Of a stretch of DNA of 64,000 nucleotides, positions 1,770-57,896 are shown one piece after another. Every line of letters begins with the position of its first letter. The stretch's first letter is position 1. The DNA lies in assembly GCA_900545135.1 (NCBI GenBank), contig UQXL01000004.1, positions 1,886-65,885 on the forward strand, in the 5' to 3' direction. The stretch comes from an uncultured Eubacteriales bacterium. GTDB lineage: Bacteria; Bacillota; Clostridia; Peptostreptococcales; Anaerovoracaceae. The notes beneath the pieces were generated by a model that was given only the letters and a program-made list of their open reading frames with translations, was not told the origin of the DNA and searched no databases. The position numbers were made by a program, and so were the translations under genes.

Positions 1770-2160
1770 GCAGAAATGTTGTAGAATTTAAGGATTTTAT
1801 AAAATTCTACAACGTTGAGATGTTAGCCTACGTGAGTCGCACAATGTGCGACATGTAATCTGTAATATTATGGAAAATGTTGTACAATTTTTTATTTTGA
1901 CTGATTTTTGACAACATTTTTCATTTTAGAGCGTGCCGAAACTTGTCGAATCAGCTATTAAAACGAGCCGATGTTGGCATATCTTTATAAAATCTGAAAA
2001 TTTGCCAACATTTTTTAGAAAAGGTGTTGGCAAATTTGCCACAAATCCGAAAAATGTACAACATCGACATGATTCGACTCGCCAAAGTACCCAAAATCGT
2101 AGAAGTCTTTCCAAAATGTTGGCATTTAAGCAGCATTTTTAATTTTTGCCAACATTCAAC
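1770..2160. repeat. AT-rich array of at least 9 copies of an AATGTTG(G/T)(C/A)A..AAT motif in both orientations. It includes the perfect palindrome TTGGCAAATTTGCCAA and the inverted pair TGTTGTAGAATT-N17-AATTCTACAACG.
   Basis: The motif occurs at about 1777, 1803, 1876, 1908, 1969, 2003, 2025, 2113 and 2143. Confidence 0.5.
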
Positions 2161-2221
2161 CGACTAAACCGTTTCTAATTATACATTTTCCTTTTCTATC
2201 GCTTCAATAAATTAAGTCCGT

Positions 2222-2390
2222 CAAAGCGTTTCAATATCCGCGTCCTCTCGGCGAAGCCGATATAATCGTTACAATCTCCTGCGGACATTATACCACAAAG
2301 CAAGTTTAGCAAAGTGATTCAATGAACCCTACCCTGCGGCAACGCCGAACAATACGATGTTGGGTTCATTATACCATTCCAAAGAATATT
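2222..2390 (+). repeat. Two tandem ~65-80-nt hairpin units (gcgtttcaat..cctctcggcgaagccga..cattata and gtttcaatgaaccc..gggttcattata). They belong to the same family as the units at 54466-54697.
   Basis: There are conserved ends (gYttcaatg ... cattata). The outer stem differs between units in a compensatory way (ccgc/gcgg against aaccc/gggtt). There is an inner CGGC-NNN-GCCG hairpin. Confidence 0.6.
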
Positions 2391-2418
2391 TGACAATGAC
2401 ATTAAATAGTTCTATAAT
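2390..2418 (+). promoter_or_regulatory. Sigma-A type promoter, TTGACA-N17-TATAAT, driving the TPP riboswitch and thiT
   Basis: ttgaca at 2390-2395 and tataat at 2413-2418 with a 17-nt spacer, immediately upstream of the riboswitch. Confidence 0.6.
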
Positions 2419-2425
2419 GATAAAA

Positions 2426-2512
2426 TGCTAGGGGAGCTTATGCTGAGATAATACTGCAGTTTTGCAGTTTGACCCTCAACACCTGATCCGGTCAATGCCG
2501 GCGTAGGGAAGC
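2426..2512 (+). promoter_or_regulatory. TPP (THI-box) riboswitch
   Basis: ctaggggagc..gctgagata..accctcaacacctgatccggtcaatgccggcgtagggaag matches the THI element consensus (GGGG..GCTGAGA..ACCC..CCTGATCYGGNTAATGCCRGCGTAGGGAA). It is followed by thiT. Confidence 0.85.
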
Positions 2513-2567
2513 AAAAAAACGTTATTTTTTTGTGCGGTTCCCCTCCTATAACAAAGGAGGATTTTTT

Positions 2568-26932: not shown

Positions 26933-27007
26933 GCTGATGTGGCTCAATGGTAGAGCAGCTCATTCGTAATGAGCAGGTTGGGGGTTCGATTCCCTTCATC
27001 AGCTCCA
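26933..27007 (+). tRNA. tRNA-Thr (anticodon CGT)
   Basis: Manual cloverleaf: acceptor GCTGATG/CATCAGC, D-arm GCTC-AATGGTA-GAGC, anticodon arm GCTCA-TTCGTAA-TGAGC, T-arm GGGGG-TTCGATT-CCCTT, 3' CCA encoded. Confidence 0.85.
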
Positions 27008-32007: not shown

Positions 32008-32040
32008 CTGGAATATACACGTCAAAAATAAACTGTATGC

Positions 32041-32147
32041 ATCTTCTTCCATCCAGACTATACTGTCGGCTTCGGAGTTTCACCGAATCTGCCTTTCGGC
32101 TCGCGGGCTTTACCGCCGGTAGGGAATCGCACCCTGCCCTGAAGATT
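32041..32147 (-). promoter_or_regulatory. FMN riboswitch (RFN element)
   Basis: Minus strand reads cttcagggcagggtgcgattccctaccggcggtaaagcccgcgagccgaaaggcagattcggtgaaactccgaagccgacagtatagtctggatggaagaagat, matching the RFN consensus (GGGCAGGGTGAAATTCCC.ACCGGCGGT..AGCCCGCGAGC....CCGACAGT.AAGTCTGGATG.GAGAAG). Confidence 0.8.
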
Positions 32148-32263
32148 ATTGTTTTGATGAATTTATCATACCACTCTATGGCTGACTTTGCAAGAGGTTT
32201 ATTGAAAAAGCGCAAAAGAGCTGCGTAGTTCGTGTAAAGCCCCAGGCTTCCTCATTGCCTCCA

Positions 32264-47443: not shown

Positions 47444-48166
47444 TTAAAGAAGCAGTTCTATGAAGAAACCCACGATCGGCGTGAGGATTTTGCCCGTCAC
47501 ATTTAATATGATGAGCAGCATCAATATGTAAAATCCGTTGTTATAGACGGTATAATACCAGCTGTATCTGTCCAGCCTGAAAATCTGCGTCACTATACCG
47601 AAGCCGTCCAGCGGCGGCACAGGCAGCAGATTGAAGACCATCAGCACCAGATTTATGCTCATCATGTAGTAGAGTATCCAGAACAGTATTTCCGTAAAGC
47701 TTCCGCTGTAGATATAACCTCCGCCGGACCTTACCAAAAGCCTTATCGCTCCTGCGGAGAGAGCTGCTATGATAAAATTGGTGACGACTCCAGCCAGTGA
47801 AACCATGATCTCATCCACTCTTCTGTGCTTATAATAGGACGGATTTATCTGTACAGGCTCGCCCCAGCCGAAGCCGGCAAAAAACAGAGCGAGAAATCCT
47901 ATGGGGTCTATATGCTTCAAAGGATTAAGGGAAAGCCTTCCCTGAAGCTTAGGCGTAGGGTCTCCCAGCCAGTAGGACACGAATCCGTGTGCCGCTTCGT
48001 GAAAGGTCAGTCCTATGATGATTCCAGGGAGCATCATCAGCTGATCTATCAGCCACTGCCCTATGTCTCTCGTCGATGATAGCATGTTGTTTATCAAAAG
48101 CACGCATATTATTATCAGTATGGCAGGATTTACATTTCTGAACATTCTTCTGAAATTTTCTTTCAT
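47444..48166 (-). CDS. Site-2-protease-family (M50) membrane metalloprotease
   Basis: HEAAHG is the HExxH motif, and LNPLKHIDP... is the second motif. Confidence 0.7.
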   Translation of the reverse strand: MKENFRRMFRNVNPAILIIICVLLINNMLSSTRDIGQWLIDQLMMLPGIIIGLTFHEAAHGFVSYWLGDPTPKLQGRLSLNPLKHIDPIGFLALFFAGFGWGEPVQINPSYYKHRRVDEIMVSLAGVVTNFIIAALSAGAIRLLVRSGGGYIYSGSFTEILFWILYYMMSINLVLMVFNLLPVPPLDGFGIVTQIFRLDRYSWYYTVYNNGFYILMLLIILNVTGKILTPIVGFFIELLL

Positions 48167-48277
48167 CTCTTTCCCCTTTTGTAAAATATTAAATTTATTT
48201 TAGCACATTTTCACCTTGGTTTAAATAATATATTGTAAGAAAAAGGGCTTACTTGCCTGACTGAAAGGTGGTTTTTT

Positions 48278-48637
48278 ATGAATACATCTCTAGTTTGCAT
48301 TGACGTTTATACGGTAAACGAAGGAGATACGCTCCATTCCATAGCAGAAAAATACGATCTGCCCGTCAGCTTACTTATGAGAGTCAACGGTATCGACAAT
48401 CCGTACAATCTCCAGATAGGACGTCGCCTATGCATTCCCGGCACTGAAGATCAGCTTCCTCAGCCGCCGCAGACTCCGGAAAGATGCAGCACTACTCACA
48501 CCGTAGCTCCCGGCGATACCCTGTACTTAATAGCTAAAAAGCACGGCATAAAACTGGATAATCTTATGAGGGCAAATCCGAGCATCGACCCTTACAATAT
48601 GCTGATAGGAACCGAGCTCTGTATCCCTGCGGAATAA
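48278..48637 (+). CDS. Tandem LysM-domain protein
   Basis: There are two LysM repeats (YTVNEGDTLHSIAEKYDL.., HTVAPGDTLYLIAKKHGI..). Confidence 0.75.
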   Translation: MNTSLVCIDVYTVNEGDTLHSIAEKYDLPVSLLMRVNGIDNPYNLQIGRRLCIPGTEDQLPQPPQTPERCSTTHTVAPGDTLYLIAKKHGIKLDNLMRANPSIDPYNMLIGTELCIPAE

Positions 48638-48641
48638 TTTT

Positions 48642-48710
48642 ATTTCGCAGACAATTTGCATTTCTGCGAAACAATTTTATTTCGCAAAGCAATTTGAATC
48701 TCTGCGAAAT
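48642..48710. repeat. Two tandem ~30-bp palindromic units (tttcgcaga-N11-tctgcgaaa and tttcgcaaag-N12-ctctgcgaaa) between convergent genes
   Basis: Read directly. The stems are AT-rich and there is no U-run. Confidence 0.4.
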
Positions 48711-48966
48711 AGTTTGTGTTCCAGAAATATGACATAAGTCTTGGAAATCAAAAAAGAGTGACTGTCACAAAATGGACCGACCTCCAACCGTTAGATTTAT
48801 GCTCTAACTTTTGAATGTCGGTTCACAAGCAGCCGCTCTTTTGTTTTTCATTAGTCCTATGATTGGCAATGCTCCGGCAGACAGCGGCCTCTGCGGTCAT
48901 CAGCTCGTTGCAGGTGCGATGACTCACGCCTATGACCGTCAGAGACGGGCCAGCGGCAAACCGAAA

Positions 48967-49770
48967 TCAATAGGTAAATCCCGTATCAGGATCGGAGTAT
49001 TCCCTGAGCCTGGTCTGATAAGCGTCCATCGCGGCTTCCTCATAGGCCAGCTTTGGTTCGCTTACTTCCAGAACATTTTTCAGAAACCACTTGGTAAACA
49101 GAGGGTTTAAAACGAGGAACGGCCCGATTACGTAAGTACAGAAAAAGTTGTTTATCCTTATTCCCTCTTCTTTCGTCTCGGGGTTCAGTCCCACTCCCCT
49201 CTCAGTCATAAATAAGTATTTATCGGAAATGTTTCCGTAGCCGTAGCCGAATACGCTCTTAAAGCCGACGATTTTTATCGTCTCGCATGGTTGCTCTTCG
49301 GCGTCGTTTCCGCTACCGGCAGCCGAGTCTCCGGCAGCTTCGTCTCTGGCAGCTCCGCCGCCGTCAGGCAAAAAGCTTCCCAGATAGAGAGAATTAAATC
49401 TCTTTCTCGCCTTTCTTCTGGCGGAAAAATCCAGTATTCCAAGACCGTCGCATACTTTTTTATCTTCTTCGATTATCTCCCTGGCGAAAATTTCTCCCGC
49501 ATTGCCAGTCACCAAAAATGCTGTTCCCTGGCCGATGCGCTCCCGGATAACGTCACTGTATTTTGAGAGAGCCTCTATGGCCAGCATCTGGCCCTTTTCA
49601 GTCGTAGTTCCCATATATATGAGGTCCGGTTTTTCCTTTGCAAACAGAGGCTCGTCCTTGAGGCTGGTGTTGACTATTTCTGCTTCAGGAATGCAGCGGC
49701 TCAGATAGGTGACGTTGGCCAGATCACCGTACAGGTTGCAGATTTCCGGGAAAAGAACTTCTATCTTCAT
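48967..49770 (-). CDS. gatD: Lipid II isoglutaminyl synthase glutaminase subunit GatD (CobQ-type GATase)
   Basis: GLGILDF.., IVGFKS.FGYGYGN and a C-terminal His region. Overlaps murT by 4 nt. Confidence 0.75.
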   Translation of the reverse strand: MKIEVLFPEICNLYGDLANVTYLSRCIPEAEIVNTSLKDEPLFAKEKPDLIYMGTTTEKGQMLAIEALSKYSDVIRERIGQGTAFLVTGNAGEIFAREIIEEDKKVCDGLGILDFSARRKARKRFNSLYLGSFLPDGGGAARDEAAGDSAAGSGNDAEEQPCETIKIVGFKSVFGYGYGNISDKYLFMTERGVGLNPETKEEGIRINNFFCTYVIGPFLVLNPLFTKWFLKNVLEVSEPKLAYEEAAMDAYQTRLREYSDPDTGFTY

Positions 49771-51155
49771 GCCGTCTCACCTCTTTCCTCTATGGCCTTT
49801 TCAACGTTTTTAGCTACGTTGTTGCACAGCGTTATGGAATCTGTGCCGTAAAAGATATATATGTCTGTGCCGCTTTCAAGTTTGAGGGCTTTCGGCGAAT
49901 CCAGCTCCCTCTCGACGAAAGATATTCTGTCGTCGCCTATTCCTGCCATCTTGAGCCTCAAGTAATAGTCCTTGGCTCTCGGGCCGGTGACCACTATATT
50001 CTTAATGTTTTCCCTGTTGAGAAATTCAAAGTCCGCATCGTATAGCCAGCAGACGTTTTCTGACCAGTGCTTGCTGTCTCCGAGGCTGTTCATCATAAGT
50101 ATGAGCTCTTTGTCTCCAGGTCTTCCAGCCACGTAATCAAAGGCTCTTGAAGCGCCGAGGGCGTTCTTGTCTTTGGCCATCTGCTTTACGATGCGATGTC
50201 CGCCGGCTTCTTTGACGTCGAACCTGCTCTTGACAATCTCTATCTGCTCAAGGAGTTCCTTTATTCTCTCGCGGCTGTAGCCCAGCTCCCTGAACAGCGA
50301 AACGACGGCTACCACGTTATATATATTGAATACGCTGTCGTTTAAAAGCCTGTATTTCGCCGTCTCTCCGCCGTCTTCCACTTCTATGGTCATATTCTCC
50401 AGGTCAGCGTTTTTTCCCTTGTAATCACATTCAGGCGACTTGAAGCCGCAGTCCGGACAATATGCTTTTCCTATATGATGGTATCTGAGATGTTCATATT
50501 TCAAAATGCTGCTGCACTCAGGACATACCCGTAGGTCGTTGATGAGATTGACACATTCCTTGACGTCTGTATCGAGGCTTTCTATGCCGAAATACTTCCT
50601 CTCGTTTTCCGGCGCTATGCCGCAGGCGATGAGATCGTCGCCGTTGATTATGAGCCTGGTTTCCGGCGGCATTTCCTCCGTCAGAATACGGGCTATAAAC
50701 TCCGGATGTCCGTTTCTCATGATCGAATCTCTCGTCAGGTTGTTTATCAGCAGAAGCTCAGGTTTCAGGGCAGGAAAAAGCAGCGGTGCAGAACGCTCGT
50801 CCATCTCCAGCAGCGCCGTGTCGTACTTGGCTTTTCCGAAAATTCCTGCGCCCATGATGAGGGCTGTGGCTATGCCTGTATTTATGTTGGAGCCGAGACT
50901 GTTGTTAAGCACACGCCTGCCGTCTGCCTTGAACATATCTATGGCCAGATTGCAGACAGTGGTCTTGCCGTTGGTTCCTGTCACGCCGATTATGGCCTTC
51001 GGCTTTTTTATTATCTTAAGGAAATCGGGGCACAGCTTGATTGCCACCACCCCCGGGAAATTAGTTCCGTTATGTCTTGTTATTCTCAGCGCTATGACCG
51101 ACAGCTTGGCCGCCCACAGCGCGATAAAAAATCTTATTTTGTTCATTATTCTCAA
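49767..51155 (-). CDS. murT: Lipid II isoglutaminyl synthase ligase subunit MurT (Mur-ligase family plus DUF1727)
   Basis: IGVTGTNGKTT and a Cys4 zinc ribbon (CPECS...CPDCG). Confidence 0.85.
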   Translation of the reverse strand: MRIMNKIRFFIALWAAKLSVIALRITRHNGTNFPGVVAIKLCPDFLKIIKKPKAIIGVTGTNGKTTVCNLAIDMFKADGRRVLNNSLGSNINTGIATALIMGAGIFGKAKYDTALLEMDERSAPLLFPALKPELLLINNLTRDSIMRNGHPEFIARILTEEMPPETRLIINGDDLIACGIAPENERKYFGIESLDTDVKECVNLINDLRVCPECSSILKYEHLRYHHIGKAYCPDCGFKSPECDYKGKNADLENMTIEVEDGGETAKYRLLNDSVFNIYNVVAVVSLFRELGYSRERIKELLEQIEIVKSRFDVKEAGGHRIVKQMAKDKNALGASRAFDYVAGRPGDKELILMMNSLGDSKHWSENVCWLYDADFEFLNRENIKNIVVTGPRAKDYYLRLKMAGIGDDRISFVERELDSPKALKLESGTDIYIFYGTDSITLCNNVAKNVEKAIEERGETA

Positions 51156-51258
51156 TATCCGTATTCGATTTTATATTTCACTCATATCAATAAGTCATCC
51201 GCCGTAACGTGCATATGCACAGAGCATCAGATGCATTATTATTCAGTGTATTAAAAGA

Positions 51259-52281
51259 TTAACATTTGAATTCTGGTATGATTTCTTTAATCTTTGGCAT
51301 TATACCTATTCCTCCCGGAGTCTGTCCAGGAAGCTGCCAGAAATCATGGGCGCAATAGTTATTGCCTTCTATTATAGCAGGGCCTTTCGGAGTAATAGCG
51401 ACATCCCAGCCTACATACCTCATCTGGGGAATTTCCAGAGCCGCCTTTTTTACCATTTCCACCGCTTCTTTCATAAACGGGACTTTATATCCTATAAGAG
51501 GAGTATGGCTGTATGGATGTTCAGTATAGTGTATTCCTGCCGTCGTATCTCCTGAATGAGCAGGATAAAGGAATTCGCCGGTTTCTACGTCTACAGGTCC
51601 GTGGAGTCCATAATTATCCACAACTCTTCCGTTAATTCCCATTTTGAACACTGCATAAACGCAATGCGGAACGCCTTTTCCGTCTATCATCGTTATCATT
51701 CTCATGGTATTTACTGAAAAAGGATATATCTTATCTATATCAGGATGATTTTCTATTACATCCTCAATTGTGGCGAATCCCTTATCCCTCACATATTTTA
51801 CGAAATCTTCAAAACTATCAAATTTTTCAGTTTCCAGAGATTCGCAGCCGATTCCGCAGCTAAGATCTTTCATTTTTGCAAATATTTTTTTTCTTGTGCT
51901 GAAAAAATTCTTTATATCTTCATCGGAGGCAGTTTCAAGGTCAAGGCACTCTCTTCCTATATATTCTTTGAATCGTTCATTGAATTCATTCTTATTATCA
52001 AAATAGTGCGCATAATCATGATCATTCATAAACATGATGAATTTCTTGCTTCTCATTCTAGTCATATACGTGTCTCTCTGTTTGTGGTTAAGATTCCAAA
52101 ATTCGAATATGACATAATCGTTATAGCCTGAGCCATAGCGAAGAGTACAGTTTATCATATCAAAAAATATAGCAATTTTGCTCTTTCCTGAGCGTTCATG
52201 AGCGTTATTTAATACTTTGGAAAATTTCTCAAAACTAGCCCCTCTGATAACTCTCATATAATACTGCAATCTGCTTTCCAT
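51259..52281 (-). CDS. ATP-grasp domain protein (sugar-transfer-associated ATP-grasp-like)
   Basis: 340 aa. The C-terminal VGWDVAITPKGPAIIEGN is a typical ATP-grasp core. The family assignment is tentative. Confidence 0.55.
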   Translation of the reverse strand: MESRLQYYMRVIRGASFEKFSKVLNNAHERSGKSKIAIFFDMINCTLRYGSGYNDYVIFEFWNLNHKQRDTYMTRMRSKKFIMFMNDHDYAHYFDNKNEFNERFKEYIGRECLDLETASDEDIKNFFSTRKKIFAKMKDLSCGIGCESLETEKFDSFEDFVKYVRDKGFATIEDVIENHPDIDKIYPFSVNTMRMITMIDGKGVPHCVYAVFKMGINGRVVDNYGLHGPVDVETGEFLYPAHSGDTTAGIHYTEHPYSHTPLIGYKVPFMKEAVEMVKKAALEIPQMRYVGWDVAITPKGPAIIEGNNYCAHDFWQLPGQTPGGIGIMPKIKEIIPEFKC

Positions 52282-52293
52282 ATCATCTTCCTC

Positions 52294-53760
52294 CTAAAGT
52301 ACATCTGTAAGTAGTCTTGAAACGACTTCTTTCAGCCTTATAATTATATTTCTTTTATTGTATTCAGACAGCGTCAGCTCATGGCTTTTTTGCATATCCA
52401 TTTCAAAGGTATCTTCCATCTGAGCTGCGAAATCTTCGTCGAACACAAATGCGTTGGTCTCAAAATTCAGTTTAAAACTTCTATTGTCGAAATTGGTAGA
52501 GCCCATGCTGGACACTTCTCCGTCCACCACCAGCGTCTTGGCGTGAAGAAATCCGTTGTCATATATCCATACGCGCGCTCCCGAGCGCAGAAGCTCACCT
52601 ATATAATAATAGGTTGCCCAGTAAACGAAAGGATGGTCAGGCATGCAAGGTATCATTACTCTGACATCTACGCCTGACTGAGAGGCCATTTTAAGCGATT
52701 CAAGTATGCTCTGGTCAGGAACGAAATAAGGCGTCTGCACATACACGTTTTTCTCGGCGTATGTGATCATCCTCATAAAGCCTCTCTTGACTTCTTCCTT
52801 AGGATCTTCCGGTCCGCAGGAAACGATCTGCACACCTTTGCGGCCGGCCTTTTCCGTGCTTAGAGCCGCCGATGGAACGGCTTCTATCTTTTCCTTGGTG
52901 GTAAATCTCCAGTCCATGATAAACCTGGAGTTTAAATCATATACGCTTCCGCCTTCTATTCTTACATGCGTGTCTCTCCAATATCCAAACTTGCGCTTTT
53001 TCCCCACATATTCCTTGGCGATGTTATACCCTCCGGTATACGCTACTTTACCGTCTATTACTGTTATCTTTCTGTGGTTTCTGTAGTTGAGTTTGAGACC
53101 GAGGAAAATGAATTTAGGTTTAAAGAAATATCCGACTTTTCCGCCGGCTCTCAAGTAGTCCTTTAACACTCCTTTGGTTATGTACCGGCTTCCCAAAGCG
53201 TCCATCAAAAGCCGCACTTCCACGCCTTCTCTGGCTTTTTCAGTGAGAACTTCTATAAATCTTCTTCCTACCTTGTCCCTCTTTATTATGAAGAACTCTA
53301 CGTTTACGCTTTCCCTGGCTTTCCTGATATCTTTTATCAGCTCCTCCATCAGCTCGTTGCCGTCAGTGATAAGTCGTATCTCGTTGTCCTGAGTATAGTA
53401 TGCTTTGCCGTAAACTTGATTGAGTTTTATCAGGTGCTGCCATTTTTGTGCGCTTTCCGATCCAAAGTCGTAAGTCTTCTCATCCATGTTGGCTATCTGT
53501 TTTCTCAGTGCGTTGCTGGTGACTCTCTCTTCGGTCTCAGTCATCCTGTTTATCTTTCTTCGGGAAATATTCTGATTAAGAACAAGATAGAGCACGAACC
53601 CCAATACAGGTATAAAGGCCATCACCATTATCCAGGCGAAAATGGCGGAGGACGTCTTTCTTTCGTTAAAAATAACTGTTATGATGAGTAACGCGTTTAT
53701 AACATATAGAGTAATAGGTGAACTGAATATTCCTACGATAAAATTCCAAATACTTTCCAT
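52294..53760 (-). CDS. cls: Cardiolipin synthase
   Basis: Two N-terminal TM segments and two PLD HKD motifs (NHRKITVIDG.., LHAKTLVVDG..GSTNFD). Confidence 0.85.
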   Translation of the reverse strand: MESIWNFIVGIFSSPITLYVINALLIITVIFNERKTSSAIFAWIMVMAFIPVLGFVLYLVLNQNISRRKINRMTETEERVTSNALRKQIANMDEKTYDFGSESAQKWQHLIKLNQVYGKAYYTQDNEIRLITDGNELMEELIKDIRKARESVNVEFFIIKRDKVGRRFIEVLTEKAREGVEVRLLMDALGSRYITKGVLKDYLRAGGKVGYFFKPKFIFLGLKLNYRNHRKITVIDGKVAYTGGYNIAKEYVGKKRKFGYWRDTHVRIEGGSVYDLNSRFIMDWRFTTKEKIEAVPSAALSTEKAGRKGVQIVSCGPEDPKEEVKRGFMRMITYAEKNVYVQTPYFVPDQSILESLKMASQSGVDVRVMIPCMPDHPFVYWATYYYIGELLRSGARVWIYDNGFLHAKTLVVDGEVSSMGSTNFDNRSFKLNFETNAFVFDEDFAAQMEDTFEMDMQKSHELTLSEYNKRNIIIRLKEVVSRLLTDVL

Positions 53761-53944
53761 AATCCTCTTTCTTTAGTCCTAATCTCAAATTCTGTAATAC
53801 CCTCAAGGCACGCTGAGTGCGTTGATGCAGTGTATGGTGAAATTTTCTGCTTTGCTGAAATCATTTCAGACAGTCTGTATGCAGCATCGGGTTTTACCAA
53901 TCGGCCTGCATGCAATCTCAGATTTGCCCTATCGGTTTCTCCTG

Positions 53945-54027
53945 GCGATTTGTCATCCCGGCGCGATTTCGTTTTCCTCCATCCTGTCGGCATGATTTGT
54001 TTTCCCGGTGCGATTTGATTTTGGAAG
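53945..54027. repeat. Two tandem copies of a ~38-nt unit (gcgatttgtcatcccggcgcgatttcgttttcc / gcatgatttgttttcccggtgcgatttgattttgg)
   Basis: Read directly. Confidence 0.5.
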
Positions 54028-54029
54028 AC

Positions 54030-54300
54030 CCAATGTTGCAGAATTTTTAAAAATTAGTCGTATTCTACAACATTCCTCATCTTAAATCAAATTAAATTAC
54101 CGTTAATTTTATGAATGTTGCAGAATTCTGTGAATATCTGAAATTCTACAACATAAATGAGCAAATATGTTGCATTTTTAATCAATAATTATGAAAATTA
54201 CAACATTGAATCAATTTCCCTGTGTTTTCATATCTCTATATGCTGATAATGTTGCATAATTTTAAAAAAACAAAAAATTATGCAACATTTCATGTCGGCA
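54030..54300. repeat. AT-rich array of at least 8 copies of the AATGTTG(C/T)A.AAT motif in alternating orientation
   Basis: caatgttgcagaattt, attctacaacattcc, gaatgttgcagaattctg, aattctacaacataaat, atatgttgcattttta, aattacaacattgaat, aatgttgcataatttt, attatgcaacatttc. Confidence 0.5.
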
Positions 54301-54465
54301 GCTAAGTTTCTCAGTTCTATTTCCTGCCAGCCGTTACCCTCTCGCCTTATATTCTGCAGCGAAAGTCTTGCGATTTCGCAAGGAGCAGCCTGAGAAGAGG
54401 AACAGCCTGCGGAACAGATGAGCAGGGCTTTTGTGCCAGAATTATTCTAACGCCCTCCAGTCTGC

Positions 54466-54697
54466 CCAAAGGCGTTTCAATGGCCGCTTCCTCTCGGCGA
54501 AGCCGATACAATCCTCTGCGGACATTATAACGCTATACAGTCGGTTAAGCAGCGTTTCAATGAACCCTACCTCTCGGCGCAGCCGAATTATATAATCATG
54601 GGTTCATTATAACGCCAGCCAGTCTGCCAAAAGGCGTTTCAATGGCCGCTTCCTCTCGGCGAAGCCGATACAATCCTCTGCGGACATTATATCACGT
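54466..54697 (+). repeat. Three tandem ~65-nt hairpin units of the same family as 2222-2390. Units 1 and 3 are near-identical.
   Basis: ggcgtttcaatggccgcttcctctcggcgaagccgatacaatcctctgcggacattata occurs twice, with gcgtttcaatgaaccctacctctcggcgcagccgaattatataatcatgggttcattata between them. Confidence 0.6.
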
Positions 54698-56068
54698 TTT
54701 TCTCTTCAGCGCTATAAAAATTCCTGCAATGCACAGAGCCGTAAATACATAAAAACAAGTATGAATAGTATCCATTAAAACAGCTGTGTCCGCCTTGTCC
54801 AAAGCCGTGTTTCCCAAGTATGCCCCCATTACAAGAGTAACTACAGCCATGCTTGCAGTGTGCCCGATGGAGCGCATGGTGGCCAGAATTGAAGAAGCAA
54901 TTCCATAGTCTTCTTTTTCCACTGAAGCCATGACGGCGTTGGTGTTGGGAGACGTAAACAAGGCGAAGCCGATTCCCGAAAGAGAAAGAGTGCCTATTAT
55001 CCTGAATATACTGCTTTCCTGCGGCAGAAATGAAAACAAAGCCAGCGCCGCGGCGCAGAAGCCCATCCCGGCAGACGACATTATATAAGGGGAATGTTTG
55101 TCCGAAAGCCGTCCGGCGACAGGAGACAGCACGGCCATAACCAGGGGCGAGGCAATCAGAATCAATCCCGCCGTCTGGGAATTATAGTCCATTACCGTCT
55201 GCAGGTATATGGAAATCAAATAGCTTATGGCGTAAGTCGCGCCGTAATTGAGCAGCGCAGCCAGATTTGAGAAAGCATAAGAGAGATTTTGTCCGAACAT
55301 CCTGACCTCTATCACCGGATTTTCCTGTTTAAGCTCCGTTCTTATGAAAAGAAACATGAGAATTGCTCCGGCCGCCAGTATGAACGGCCCGGCGTCAGAG
55401 GCCGTGAGCGTTGAAAATCCGTACATGAGGCCGACGATGGCGGTAATATAGAGGAATACGCCTCTCCAGTCCATGTGGGACTTGTCCTTGGTGCGGTTTT
55501 CGGCGGGAAGCTTTCTAAACGCGCCATAAAACGCCACCGCCGAAACGATGGCTGCTGCAATAAAAATAGATTTCCAGCCGAAATTATGGTTCAGAAAGCC
55601 TCCCAGCACCGGTCCGGCTGAAAGCCCTGCATAGGTCGAGCTTGTGGAATATCCCAGCACTTTCCCCCTGAGTTCCTTGTCAAAAGCGCCTACAAGAATG
55701 GCTATGTTTGTGCTGAAAATCATCGAAGCGCCTATGCCTTGTCCCAGCCTTGCGAGCAGGAGCATCCACATTTTAGCGGAAAACATTCCAGCCACCGAAC
55801 ACAGCCAAAATATGAGGATGCCTATCCACAGGATCCGTTTTCTCTGGCTTCTGTCGGCTATCTTCCCGAAAGGTACGGCCAGTGCCGCGCAGGTCAGCAT
55901 GTAGGCTGTGACAACCCATCCTACCGCTGCGGCACTTACGCCGAAATCTTTTTCAATATCGGGCACCGACAAGTTGAGAGCGCTTCCCATGAAAGTCGTT
56001 ATGAAAGCTGTCGTGATGGAAACGAACAGCGTACTTTTCTGTTCAGGCGTATAGTTTTTCTTTTCCAT
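54692..56068 (-). CDS. MFS transporter (14-TM, DHA2-like)
   Basis: 459 aa with polytopic MFS motifs. The start is placed at MEKKNY; the ORF extends to 56101. Confidence 0.7.
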   Translation of the reverse strand: MEKKNYTPEQKSTLFVSITTAFITTFMGSALNLSVPDIEKDFGVSAAAVGWVVTAYMLTCAALAVPFGKIADRSQRKRILWIGILIFWLCSVAGMFSAKMWMLLLARLGQGIGASMIFSTNIAILVGAFDKELRGKVLGYSTSSTYAGLSAGPVLGGFLNHNFGWKSIFIAAAIVSAVAFYGAFRKLPAENRTKDKSHMDWRGVFLYITAIVGLMYGFSTLTASDAGPFILAAGAILMFLFIRTELKQENPVIEVRMFGQNLSYAFSNLAALLNYGATYAISYLISIYLQTVMDYNSQTAGLILIASPLVMAVLSPVAGRLSDKHSPYIMSSAGMGFCAAALALFSFLPQESSIFRIIGTLSLSGIGFALFTSPNTNAVMASVEKEDYGIASSILATMRSIGHTASMAVVTLVMGAYLGNTALDKADTAVLMDTIHTCFYVFTALCIAGIFIALKRKT

Positions 56069-56159
56069 AGATAGTATTATACGCCTTTTTAGAAAATGCA
56101 ATTCTTCCGGCTGATATTTTATGTAATTTTTGTTTATTTTGTTTTATTTGCTGTTTCTT

Positions 56160-57638
56160 CTAGAGTATTATGCATATAAAATAATCTTTTCCCTCGTCGC
56201 TTATCTTCTGCAGCGATCTCTGGACTTTTCCCCTCAGCGAGTCGGGAACGTCGTTCACCTTGCTCTCCATCTGCTCCGTGACCATTTCTCTCAGGGACTT
56301 GCCGAAAAGATTGGTTTCCCATATATCTTCTCCGCCGCTTTCAAACTGCTCTCTCAGTGAGCGGGCTAAATCCTCCGACTGGCTTTCAGTTCCCACCACA
56401 GGAGACACTTCTGTTGAAATATCAGTCTTTATTATATGCAGGCACGGTGCTTTGGCTTTCATCCTCACGCCATATTTATTTCCTTGCTTGAAGACCTCAG
56501 GCTTTTCTAAAATCATCTCGGAAAGCTTAGGCGCGACGATGCCGTAATCGGAAGTGTCGACTTGCTCAAGAGCGCCCTTTATATTGTCATAGGCAGCTTT
56601 CGCCTTTGAATATTCTTTGAGAAGAATGAAAAGCTCCCTGTCGTTTTCCACGGTGGCGTTCATCAGCTCTTCTATCACTTTGTAATAAAGTGCCGCGTCC
56701 AGACGTGGTTCCAAAACTACGAGGCCGCAGGACATATCGGCACGCACTACTTTCACGTCTTTGATGATCTTTCCGTCGGCAATCATCGAGCAGCTCTCGA
56801 CCACCTGTCCTATGGTCTCGAATTCTCCCATCCATTCTTTAACTCTGTCTATAATAGTGGCTTTTATCCAGTGGTCGTCGGAAATAGCGTCCAGATAACC
56901 CGGCAGCTTAAACTGGATTTCGCAGGCAGGAAACTGATTTATCAGTTTGTCAAACATATCCTCGAAGTTTTCTTCAGTCATACGCTGACAGTTCATGAGC
57001 AAAACAGGTATGCCATAATGCTCCTCCATCTGTCTGGCTGTTTCGCGGCTTTTGGGGCTCTGCGGCGTAGCTGAATTGAGCACTATCACAAACGGCTTGT
57101 GCAGAGCTTTAAGCTGAGCTACAGTCTTTTCCTCCGCCTCGGCAAAATTACTTCTCGGAAGCTCGCCGAAGCTGCCGTCGGTGGTCACTACGACTCCGAT
57201 GACGGAATGTTCCGTGATTACTTTTTCCGTTCCTATCTCAGCCGCCTGACTGAAGGGCAGCTGTTCATCCGACCATGGCGTGTTTACCATCCTTTCTTTC
57301 CCGTCTTCTTTATCTCCCAGCACTCCGGGCACCATATATCCTACGCAGTCGACCAGCCTTACGTTAAAGCTCGCTCCGCTCTTCGTATTGATCTGAACTG
57401 CTTCCGGAGGAATAAATTTTGGCTCTGTCGTAGTTATGGTCTTTCCCTCTCCGCTCTGCGGCAATTCGTCCATTATCCTGGTTTTTTCGTATGGATTGGC
57501 CATATTGGGAAATACGAGGATATCCATAAATCTTTTTATAAAGCTTGACTTGCCTGTCCTCACCGGTCCGACAACGCCTATATAGATGTCGCCTCCCGCT
57601 CTGGTTCCAATATCCCGATAGATATCTGTATTTATCAT
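56160..57638 (-). CDS. spoIVA: Stage IV sporulation protein A (spore-coat morphogenetic ATPase)
   Basis: MINTDIYRDIGTRAGGDIYIGVVGPVRTGKSSFIKRFMD matches the SpoIVA N-terminus. A ggagggg RBS precedes the ATG at 57638. Confidence 0.9.
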   Translation of the reverse strand: MINTDIYRDIGTRAGGDIYIGVVGPVRTGKSSFIKRFMDILVFPNMANPYEKTRIMDELPQSGEGKTITTTEPKFIPPEAVQINTKSGASFNVRLVDCVGYMVPGVLGDKEDGKERMVNTPWSDEQLPFSQAAEIGTEKVITEHSVIGVVVTTDGSFGELPRSNFAEAEEKTVAQLKALHKPFVIVLNSATPQSPKSRETARQMEEHYGIPVLLMNCQRMTEENFEDMFDKLINQFPACEIQFKLPGYLDAISDDHWIKATIIDRVKEWMGEFETIGQVVESCSMIADGKIIKDVKVVRADMSCGLVVLEPRLDAALYYKVIEELMNATVENDRELFILLKEYSKAKAAYDNIKGALEQVDTSDYGIVAPKLSEMILEKPEVFKQGNKYGVRMKAKAPCLHIIKTDISTEVSPVVGTESQSEDLARSLREQFESGGEDIWETNLFGKSLREMVTEQMESKVNDVPDSLRGKVQRSLQKISDEGKDYFICIIL

Positions 57639-57896
57639 ATAATCCCCTCCGCATATTTTTACTGCTATACAAAATATATTAGTCTGAAAAGCGATTATGC
57701 AGAGTTTCAGCAAAATTTCTCTGCTGTTTACTGGGAAACCTCCCTTGGTTCTATGAAAGCCTGTGCGACACGAGGTGGTTACTGCATCAACAAAGTGTGC
57801 CGGAAATGCGTCGAAGGATACAAACGTTGGCGAAAATCAGTCTATTACAGGCAATACGCTCAGCCAGATGCCCGACTCCCGAGCAAGTCTGGCATG

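Follow-up and report, generated by a model that had tools for sequence, protein, structure and literature searches.

Two hairpin arrays and their neighbors

The window (the whole stretch of DNA analyzed, 64,000 nt) carries two intergenic arrays of nested hairpin units. Locus 1, between thiT and DUF975, has two units (2226-2379); locus 2, between cls and a gene for an MFS protein (54692-56101), has three (54472-54697). An earlier note on this DNA had reported these copy numbers, along with conserved unit termini, an inner CGGC-NNN-GCCG stem-loop, and an outer stem that switches between unit types, and all four observations hold. A degenerate pattern run over the 64 kb, allowing up to three mismatches, found exactly five sites, which are the known units (0.00 expected, from 100 shuffled controls), and a covariance model (see below) gave them 57-76 bits, with everything else in the window at 17 bits or less. 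Read on the plus strand, the unit form is TTCAATG - variable arm - yTyCCyy(G/T) - CGGC-NNN-GCCG-A - variable segment - complementary arm - CATTATA, the outer stem switching between GGCCGC/GCGGAC and GAACCC/GGGTTC.

The units are indeed tandem, as the earlier note had it, but its limits for them (~60-65 nt) were too narrow: the linker of 25-26 nt that follows each hairpin belongs to the element and to its period. At locus 2 this period is 80-82 nt, with linkers of 26 nt separating the units (plus-strand coordinates; Table 1). Units 1 and 3 of this locus are 95% identical, and unit 2 stands at 60%; in the minus-strand reading, unit 3 is the most distal. The linkers fall into types, with clear hairpins in types 1 and 3, and weak or unconvincing ones in type 2. 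The arms of type-1 linkers covary among copies (AACGCC/GGCGTT vs. AACGCT/AGCGTT), while the type-2 linker of locus 1, on its minus strand, gives TTGTGG ahead of the internal TATAAT.

When the units are folded as single-stranded DNA, the nested hairpin is the minimum-energy fold in four of five, with z-scores of about -2 to -4. The fifth, at 2226-2294, is degenerate or decayed by this measure (z = -0.2), and has a 9-nt duplication within its variable segment. The ATTCTA at the proximal end of locus 2 is TAGAAT on the minus strand, which would be a degenerate copy of a regenerated -10 box (see below).

Table 1. Features of the two arrays and their surroundings, in window coordinates (a double slash marks a junction).
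Feature	Position	Strand	Description
Palindromes near locus 1 (five, same family as those near locus 2)	1776..2155	.	1776-1815, 1877-1917, 1971-2011, 2025-2064, 2116-2155
Locus 1, proximal junction	2200..2229	+	minus-strand reading CATTGAA-ACGCTTTGACGGACTTAA-TTTATT//GAAGCG
Locus 1, proximal unit	2230..2292	+	arms ATCCGC/GCGGAC, degenerate; 57.3 bits; weak fold
Locus 1, linker	2293..2317	+	type 2, CCACAAAGCAAGTTTAGCAAAGTGA
Locus 1, distal unit	2318..2373	+	arms GAACCC/GGGTTC, inner CGGC-AAC-GCCG; 76 bits
Native DUF975 promoter (putative)	2368..2396	-	TTGTCA-17 nt-TGGTATAAT, 11/12 matches plus TG
Palindromes near locus 2 (four, 40-41 bp)	54033..54288	.	54033-54073, 54115-54154, 54167-54206, 54249-54288
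Locus 2, proximal array end	54444..54475	+	last linker and ATTCTA
Locus 2, unit 1	54476..54529	+	hairpin B, arms GGCCGC/GCGGAC; 66.2 bits
Locus 2, linker between units 1 and 2	54530..54555	+	type 1
Locus 2, unit 2	54556..54611	+	hairpin B, arms GAACCC/GGGTTC, inner CGGC-GCA-GCCG; 65.7 bits; DNA fold z = -4.2
Locus 2, linker between units 2 and 3	54612..54637	+	type 1, ACGCC-N16-GGCGT hairpin
Locus 2, unit 3	54638..54691	+	hairpin B, arms GGCCGC/GCGGAC, inner CGGC-GAA-GCCG; 67.5 bits over 54634-54697
Locus 2, distal extended -10 box	54686..54694	-	TGATATAAT; the lone TGnTAtAAT at this place in the unit-free relatives L074, L075, and L076

On their low-coordinate side, both loci also have palindromes of the form ATGTTG-N28/29-CAACAT (seven exact matches, against 0.05 expected). 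The earlier note had placed each locus downstream of an AT-rich motif array, and had taken the whole for a composite intergenic repeat duplicated in the genome. The first of these statements is true of the window, but the link is peculiar to this species: within 1.5 kb of units in other genomes there are no such palindromes, except for one match that overlaps a unit itself, and neither L073 (the 89% relative described below) nor L058 has them at the orthologous site. The second can be set aside, since the two window loci share only single units and single palindromes, the latter in either orientation, with no collinear block. For the same reasons (absence beside units elsewhere and in L073, and the lack of collinear homology) the palindrome arrays were rejected as part of the element. 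They form a repeat family of their own, specific to this species, which has built up between units and genes, so that the window arrays now lie 700-800 nt from cls and DUF975.

Distribution of the family

A scan of one genome per species, with the arms left free in the search pattern, gave 56 loci, nearly all in the Anaerovoracaceae and unnamed relatives. The covariance model, built from 74 distinct units, confirmed 52 of these; the other four (L002, L010, L049, and L051) were discarded as chance pattern matches. A covariance search for further copies had been suggested in the earlier note, and there are many: the 52 loci account for 112 hits, in about 20 Anaerovoracaceae-type genomes. A lack of other copies, which the note had named as a refutation, is thereby contradicted. 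Array size ranges from one to five or six units, and a single metagenome-assembled genome (MAG), CALCEY01, has 12 loci in the pattern scan. Hosts include Emergencia (E. timonensis), Anaerovorax (A. odorimutans), Senimuribacter, “Clostridium aminobutyricum,” and related MAGs. The cls protein of the window shares 55-62% identity with those of named Anaerovoracaceae and 69% with that of Candidatus Fimisoma, which places its organism in this family.

The units have no match in Rfam 15, either at the gathering threshold or at E ≤ 10; elsewhere in the window the same search returned FMN, TPP, and tRNA models, plus microRNA-like noise on the AT-rich palindromes. No copies were found in the phage, plasmid, and viral collections searched, and literature searches gave no description of a TATAAT-targeted repeat. 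The units belong to a hitherto undescribed family of small repeated DNA elements of gut Clostridia (Anaerovoracaceae). Arrays of type III toxin-antitoxin RNAs or of a CRISPR-like kind were considered and rejected: no toxin or cas gene adjoins them, the inter-unit linkers are not unique, and one genome carries many such loci. No intrinsic terminators were predicted on either strand, including 3′ of the hairpins.

Orientation and neighboring genes

With the genes around each array called crudely, as greedy ORFs, the gene flanking the units on their 5′ side (plus sense) lies on the opposite strand at 44 of 45 loci; for the gene on the 3′ side the strands divide 25:21. This ties the arrays to gene starts and makes the minus strand the informative one, the reverse of that on which the earlier note had read them. 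The spacers they occupy are divergent in 21 cases, tandem and co-oriented in 16, and tandem but anti-oriented in one, with none convergent. Within each array all units have the same orientation, head to tail. Replication-strand bias was rejected as a cause, since it would affect both neighbors and only one side is biased. In minus-strand reading the layout is TRTGnTATAAT // hairpin - CATTGAA - linker - TGnTATAAT // 5′ UTR - gene.

The genes downstream are unrelated to one another: 43 proteins fall into 65 Pfam families, with at most two members per family, and include cardiolipin synthase, DUF975, thymidylate kinase, GlnRS, DNA polymerase III alpha, CoaBC, asparaginase, and cyclophilin. Genes on the other side of the arrays are equally diverse by Pfam. 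At least three intergenic positions are common to different genomes (DUF975/ThiT, CoaBC/CoaX, and upstream of a sigma-54 activator). Pfam searches of both sets of flanking genes found no transposase or recombinase within about 4 kb of any array, and neither a Y1 probe nor a motif search found a Y1-like ORF in the about 8 kb around each. In an all-against-all clustering of 472 neighboring ORFs, only generic ABC ATPases and sigma-54 activators recur.

These neighborhoods, and the anatomy of the units, bear on the possibility of integron-like cassettes, in which the linker between CATTGAA and TATAATG would be an attC-like folded site used by a tyrosine recombinase. The two motifs are imperfect inverse copies of each other (5 of 7 positions), closing the hairpin or the linker, and the arrays are chains of alternating imperfect hairpins in a single orientation, as such a scheme would have it. 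However, the core sites are not RYYYAAC/GTTRRRY, the would-be cassettes have no ORF, and the arrays are scattered over many loci instead of lying beside one integrase and its attI, with no integrase nearby; we consider this explanation extremely unlikely. A classical DDE-type MITE was also rejected: the sequence between TATAAT copies, GAACGC...TGTGG or GAACGC...CATGG, has ends that are not inverted repeats of each other.

Promoter-like signals at the array ends

The CATTATA at the unit end is TATAATG on the reverse strand. Its invariance is in part by construction, because CATTATA (hence TATAAT) formed part of the search pattern; the signals that accompany it were absent from that pattern. Forty of 49 distal ends have a TG at -15/-14, with the consensus T/C-R-T-G-n; TRTGn is the extended -10 element of Gram-positive bacteria. 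In the unique flanking sequence beyond, hexamers resembling a -35 box are enriched at a spacer of exactly 17 nt (mean score 2.35, vs. about 1.6), where 10 of 49 score at least 4 of 6, compared to 0-6 (mostly 1-4) at other spacings. CATTGAA was considered as a -35 box for the next TATAAT, and rejected on its spacing of 25-38 nt.

Beyond the last unit there is one more linker and one more TGnTATAAT, with a start codon 35-125 nt further on. Since each array ends in this way, n units are bounded by n+1 extended -10 boxes. Type-1 linkers, the kind present at locus 2 of the window, have no TG. At locus 1, the -10 box of the putative DUF975 promoter (Table 1) is the end of the last unit, and this promoter stands back to back with that of thiT, a perfect TTGACA-17-TATAAT (2390-2418, plus strand). 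At locus 2, the MFS gene uses the TGA of TGATATAAT as its stop codon; the box is probably both the native cls promoter and the insertion target. The TATAAT copies in the arrays may act as promoters in vivo. Delivery of a promoter by the window arrays is doubtful, because of their distance from cls and DUF975.

Filled and empty sites in relatives

Filled and empty sites were compared at two orthologous loci, those of DUF975 and cls. For the first, relatives were taken from a metagenome scan with the DUF975 protein, which yielded syntenic ThiT - TPP riboswitch - DUF975 contigs, about 73-79% identical in nucleotide sequence, without a unit. The empty spacer of one of these (L058) reads TTGTCA-17-TGGTATAAT//gaagcgagaatg...ATG. 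At the same point the window has the same promoter, then two units and TTTATT, apparently a decayed second copy of the -10 box, after which the ancestral 5′ UTR resumes with the GAAGCGA seen in L058. Another genome (L056) has three units, with different arms, at this point.

For the second locus, cls homologs were traced to their contigs. In three relatives with cls proteins 85, 80, and 72% identical to that of the window (L074, L075, and L076) the MFS-cls spacer is 25-73 nt, with no unit and a single -10 box (TGATATAAT, TGTTATAAT, or TGATACAAT). L073, at 89%, has one chimeric unit, between TGATATAAT and TGGTATAAT, and the contig of a relative at 86% starts inside a unit. A contig from the same species as the window (100% cls identity) has one unit where the window has three, which may be either a real change in copy number or an assembly collapse of near-identical repeats.

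In both comparisons the junction is directly after TATAAT, and the target is kept at the empty site. These junctions would fit with insertion without duplication, with duplication of a 6-bp target, or with loss through recombination between the two TATAAT copies. In a non-mobile explanation, an ancestral promoter-plus-leader module expanded by local slippage or unequal recombination and was lost from some lineages. The TGnTATAAT direct repeats that bound the arrays would favor both expansion and precise deletion, and recombination is also indicated by the chimeric units and by the difference of one and three units within a species (if not due to assembly collapse). Such a module would leave unexplained the same roughly 80-nt sequence before dozens of unrelated genes in one genome, and at cls, where units occur only in the closest relatives and all three of the remoter ones have an empty site, gain in the nearest lineage is favored. 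We regard a non-mobile origin as very improbable.

Stem covariation and the nature of the hairpin

The earlier note had pointed out that the arm changes are paired, preserving complementarity, and this is amply borne out. In the alignment of 74 units, 97.9% of stem cells are paired, and five stem pairs vary on both sides, for a total of 108 double-change cells among the 74 distinct units. No shuffle attains the observed covariation score, and when the register is slid, pairing falls to 23-54%. The signal is not circular, since the five positions were N in the search pattern. Altogether there are 17 arm variants, all Watson-Crick complementary and largely genome-specific: GATCGC is found in one MAG, GATTGC in another, and GAACCC together with GGCCGC in the window and its relative. 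Chimeric units also occur.

Pairs of the G.U type are all but missing, whichever strand is read (2 of about 370 variable cells). Of the 20 stem mismatches just two are of the G.T type, and neither G.T nor A.C is in excess. An RNA helix that drifted through so many states would be expected to leave G.U intermediates, and their near-absence argues for a DNA hairpin rather than an RNA one. The near-purity of the Watson-Crick covariation suggests that the hairpin is read as folded single-stranded DNA.

These numbers also weigh on the idea of a structured RNA, selected for its fold either as a cis-acting 5′ leader (on the minus strand) or as a tandem small RNA (on the plus strand). The strength of the covariation is what such an RNA would show; the arrays lie in 5′ regions, where they would be transcribed from the distal promoter; the loop is conserved across genera, including the GGA-containing, Shine-Dalgarno-like CAAGGAAG; and different genomes have some intergenic positions in common (see above). 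Besides the rarity of G.U pairs, however, the genes downstream have no common function, close relatives have no units at the same gene, and copy number runs from zero to six. A transcript beginning at a unit's own -10 box would start past the 5′ arm, and so could not form the hairpin, and the hairpins have neither a terminator after them nor an Rfam match. An RNA function is, in our estimation, distinctly unlikely. The combination of a loop conserved across genera with variable arms is unusual for a selfish repeat, and would fit a host function as well.

The earlier note had left the choice between an RNA element and a DNA palindrome like those of the REP/BIME family. On the evidence above (the two G.U cells, the unrelated genes, and the presence or absence of units among relatives) the DNA palindrome is the closer description, and the RNA element unlikely. 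Membership of a REP/BIME family in the strict sense would imply palindromes moved by a single-copy RAYT, and host roles such as mRNA stabilization or binding of gyrase or IHF. The units do form intergenic clusters of hairpin repeats whose structure is conserved beyond the sequence of their arms, with moderate copy numbers and genome-specific variants; and as RAYTs are Y1/HUH enzymes, their mechanism overlaps with that proposed below. Against this, the units are arranged head to tail, at promoters, with none in convergent spacers; they are 2-3 times the length of a REP, with nested hairpins and a linker; and no RAYT was found in the about 8 kb around each array. We think strict membership unlikely.

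A proposed mobile element inserting at -10 boxes

The explanation we favor, with somewhat better than even confidence, is that the units are mobile but non-autonomous, each integrating just 3′ of an extended -10 box, which it then regenerates. One unit would be one copy of an element of about 80-100 bp, which on the minus strand would start directly after the TATAAT of a sigma-A type extended -10 (TRTGnTATAAT). Its first part would be a long imperfect hairpin, with arms consisting of TAATGA and five or six variable bases and enclosing two conserved features, the inner CGGC-NNN-GCCG mini-hairpin and a segment resembling CAAGGAAG. The second part would be CATTGAA and a linker of 25-38 nt, itself a hairpin in most types, and the element would end in a (TR)TGnTATAAT of its own.

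Integration would be orientation-specific: the native promoter would be preserved at the distal end, and the gene would acquire a new, -35-independent extended -10 promoter before it. Head-to-tail arrays would arise because each insertion recreates the target. A trans-acting enzyme would presumably recognize the hairpins in the form of folded single-stranded DNA, and its chemistry may resemble the “peel and paste” transposition of IS200/IS605 elements or RAYTs, with insertion 3′ of a short target, no duplication, and a right-end cleavage motif inside the element. A single-strand mechanism of the IS200/IS605 kind is a guess by analogy. The mobile-element reading would explain the fixed orientation, the association with gene starts, and the lack of relation among the genes, as well as the genome-specific subfamilies, the chimeric units, and the filled and empty sites.

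A bolder proposal, which we hold to be rather improbable, is that the -10 hexamer is itself what is recognized, possibly on the single-stranded non-template strand of RNA polymerase open complexes, with HUH-type integration there and the extended -10 rebuilt behind. Such a promoter parasite could spread through promoters without silencing genes. Its way of choosing targets would be new among bacterial mobile DNA, and tandem promoters would arise from it naturally.

If the mobile-element reading is right, these would be miniature elements that insert at the core promoter while the host gene remains expressed, a strategy undescribed for bacterial repeats. Their defined sequence would help to locate native sigma-A promoters in a family of gut anaerobes that has received little study, and they could contribute to the multiplication of promoters and to strain-to-strain differences in expression. 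The reading also predicts an enzyme that cleaves after TATAAT beside a hairpin. For RNA motif discovery the family carries a warning, since DNA hairpins of mobile elements can give clean compensatory changes; the tell-tale is the lack of G.U pairs.

Comparison with known systems

Among characterized transposons, IS608 inserts 3′ of TTAC without duplication, has a right-end motif, TCAA, inside the element, and has subterminal hairpins (PMC3201880). Like IS200/IS605 elements and their gene-less derivatives (PATE- or MITE-like), the units are found in one orientation, 3′ of a short target; they likewise have no terminal inverted repeats. Subterminal imperfect hairpins that matter as structures may be a further common trait, strongly supported for hairpin B and clear in linkers of types 1 and 3, but weak in type 2. 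The Watson-Crick-only covariation fits with the single-stranded DNA recognition of these systems. The differences are that the target of the units and the element's own end would be one and the same 6-mer, TATAAT, a promoter -10 box; that the left hairpin extends across the junction, and is not set 19 nt apart from it; that the two hairpins are unlike each other; and that arrays, of up to six copies, are the rule. In addition, no TnpA was found in the loci around the unit arrays.

REP and BIME sequences are likewise dispersed and clustered extragenic hairpin repeats, conserved in structure more than in sequence. REPs occur mainly at the 3′ ends of genes or inside operons. Within BIMEs, REPs that are regularly spaced alternate in orientation (PMC2817692). 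The units, by contrast, run head to tail, lie at promoters, are longer, and are present in tens of copies, not hundreds.

The pneumococcal BOX and neisserial Correia elements are, like the units, small, modular intergenic repeats able to form hairpins; boxB is found in tandem, and the ends of Correia elements can create promoters. Correia elements have inverted terminal repeats and a TA duplication. Neither BOX nor Correia elements are known to sit specifically at -10 boxes. The units are not known to resemble either in sequence, and are found in different taxa.

With respect to target choice, TnGBS and ISLre2 elements of Firmicutes insert 15-17 bp upstream of sigma-A promoters in an orientation-specific manner (PMC3942029). 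The TnGBS/ISLre2/ISKra4 DDE transposons are the sole well-documented bacterial precedent for orientation-specific targeting of sigma-A promoters. They are kilobase-sized, carry genes, and have inverted repeats, whereas the units are about 80 bp and geneless, and would insert directly after the -10 hexamer and rebuild it.

Finally, putative mobile promoters are a descriptive class derived from similarity searches (Matus-Garcia et al., 2012; PMC3488235). They too consist of homologous upstream sequence before non-homologous genes, and the units come within the definition of this class. It is a class without defined structure, target, or junctions; the units, in contrast, have a definite anatomy, a point of insertion, and empty sites with which they can be compared.

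Promoters and Gene Order at the Two Loci

The extended -10 box ahead of cls (cardiolipin synthase), TGATATAAT, takes its TG from the TGA stop codon of the MFS gene (window 54692-54694, minus strand). The same overlap is found in two relatives, L073 and L074; in a third, L075, the cls -10 box lies within the 3′ coding end of the MFS gene. At the other locus, the thiT promoter, which precedes the TPP riboswitch, stands back to back with that of DUF975, their -35 boxes overlapping.

In the window, cls is followed by ATP-grasp, MurT, and GATase genes (window 47444-57713, compared with relatives L073-L076). In L073 alone, MurT and GatD come before the ATP-grasp gene, a small local rearrangement relative to the order shared by the window and L074-L076. 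The FMN riboswitch and tRNA of the window are ordinary features, with no relation to the hairpin units.

Features located in the window and in contigs of other genomes
Feature	Location	Strand	Description
Palindrome arrays (two)	window 1776-2155; 54033-54288		9 hyphenated palindromes, 40-41 bp, ATGTTG-N28/29-CAACAT
Direct repeats	window 53936-54022		2-3 copies, ~29 nt each, GATTTGTCATCCCGGCGCGATTTCGTTTT / GATTTGTTTTCCCGGTGCGATTTGATTTT
thiT promoter	within window 2368-2418	plus	TTGACA-17-TATAAT, 12/12
DUF975 promoter	within window 2368-2418	minus	TTGTCA-17-TGGTATAAT
TPP riboswitch	window 2420-2526		
FMN riboswitch	window 32037-32150	minus	120.6 bits
tRNA	window 26933-27004	plus	71 bits
Chimeric units	L041 4722-4787; L007 5734-5805; L073 2793-2856		5′ and 3′ arms from different subfamilies
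Short tandem duplications	L050 4678-4758; L007 5532-5805; window 2261-2280		in hairpin variable segment
Orientation exception	L036 4602-4667		unit
Flexilinea-binned unit	L008 719-786		a good unit, scoring 71 bits

Unit Variants and Unusual Settings

Chimeric units in the window's relative L073 and in two contigs of other genomes, L041 and L007 (arm pair in one example, GTCCGC/GGGTTC), give evidence of recombination or deletion between neighboring units. The variable segment of the hairpin is also prone to slippage, as judged from its short tandem duplications: CCGAATTAG three times in L050 (a further contig), AACGCCG twice in L007, and ATAATC/ACAATC in the window.

The sole exception in orientation among the units, on contig L036, lies 7 nt past the 3′ end of a same-strand ORF (249 aa), so that the unit's reverse-strand TATAAT would fire antisense into that ORF; either the ORF was miscalled or the copy is a genuine off-target one. 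Another unit lies upstream of a ribosome-hibernation-factor-like gene on a 5-kb contig, L008, binned as Flexilinea (Chloroflexota). The contig probably comes from a Firmicute and was mis-binned; if not, it would represent cross-phylum transfer.

Palindromes and Other Repeats

The palindromes, a repeat family separate from the hairpin units, are spaced 52-101 nt apart within the window arrays. Their inner arms differ in sequence between copies but keep their complementarity (TTGCAG, TTGTAG, TTGGCA, TTGTAC), and several copies share a C/T asymmetry, which would make a U.G pair on the minus strand only. They are also found in L077, a contig of the window's own species, but not at the sites orthologous to the window loci in L073 and L058 (a unit-free DUF975 relative), nor adjoining units in other genomes. 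The direct repeats between the palindromes and cls have no counterpart in the relatives' short spacers.

The unit-free DUF975 leader of L058 contains a single half-site, AATGTTGGCG (2450-2480), similar to a palindrome arm of the ThiT-DUF975 locus in the window, AATGTTGGCA. This half-site could possibly be a seed or operator from which the palindrome arrays grew.
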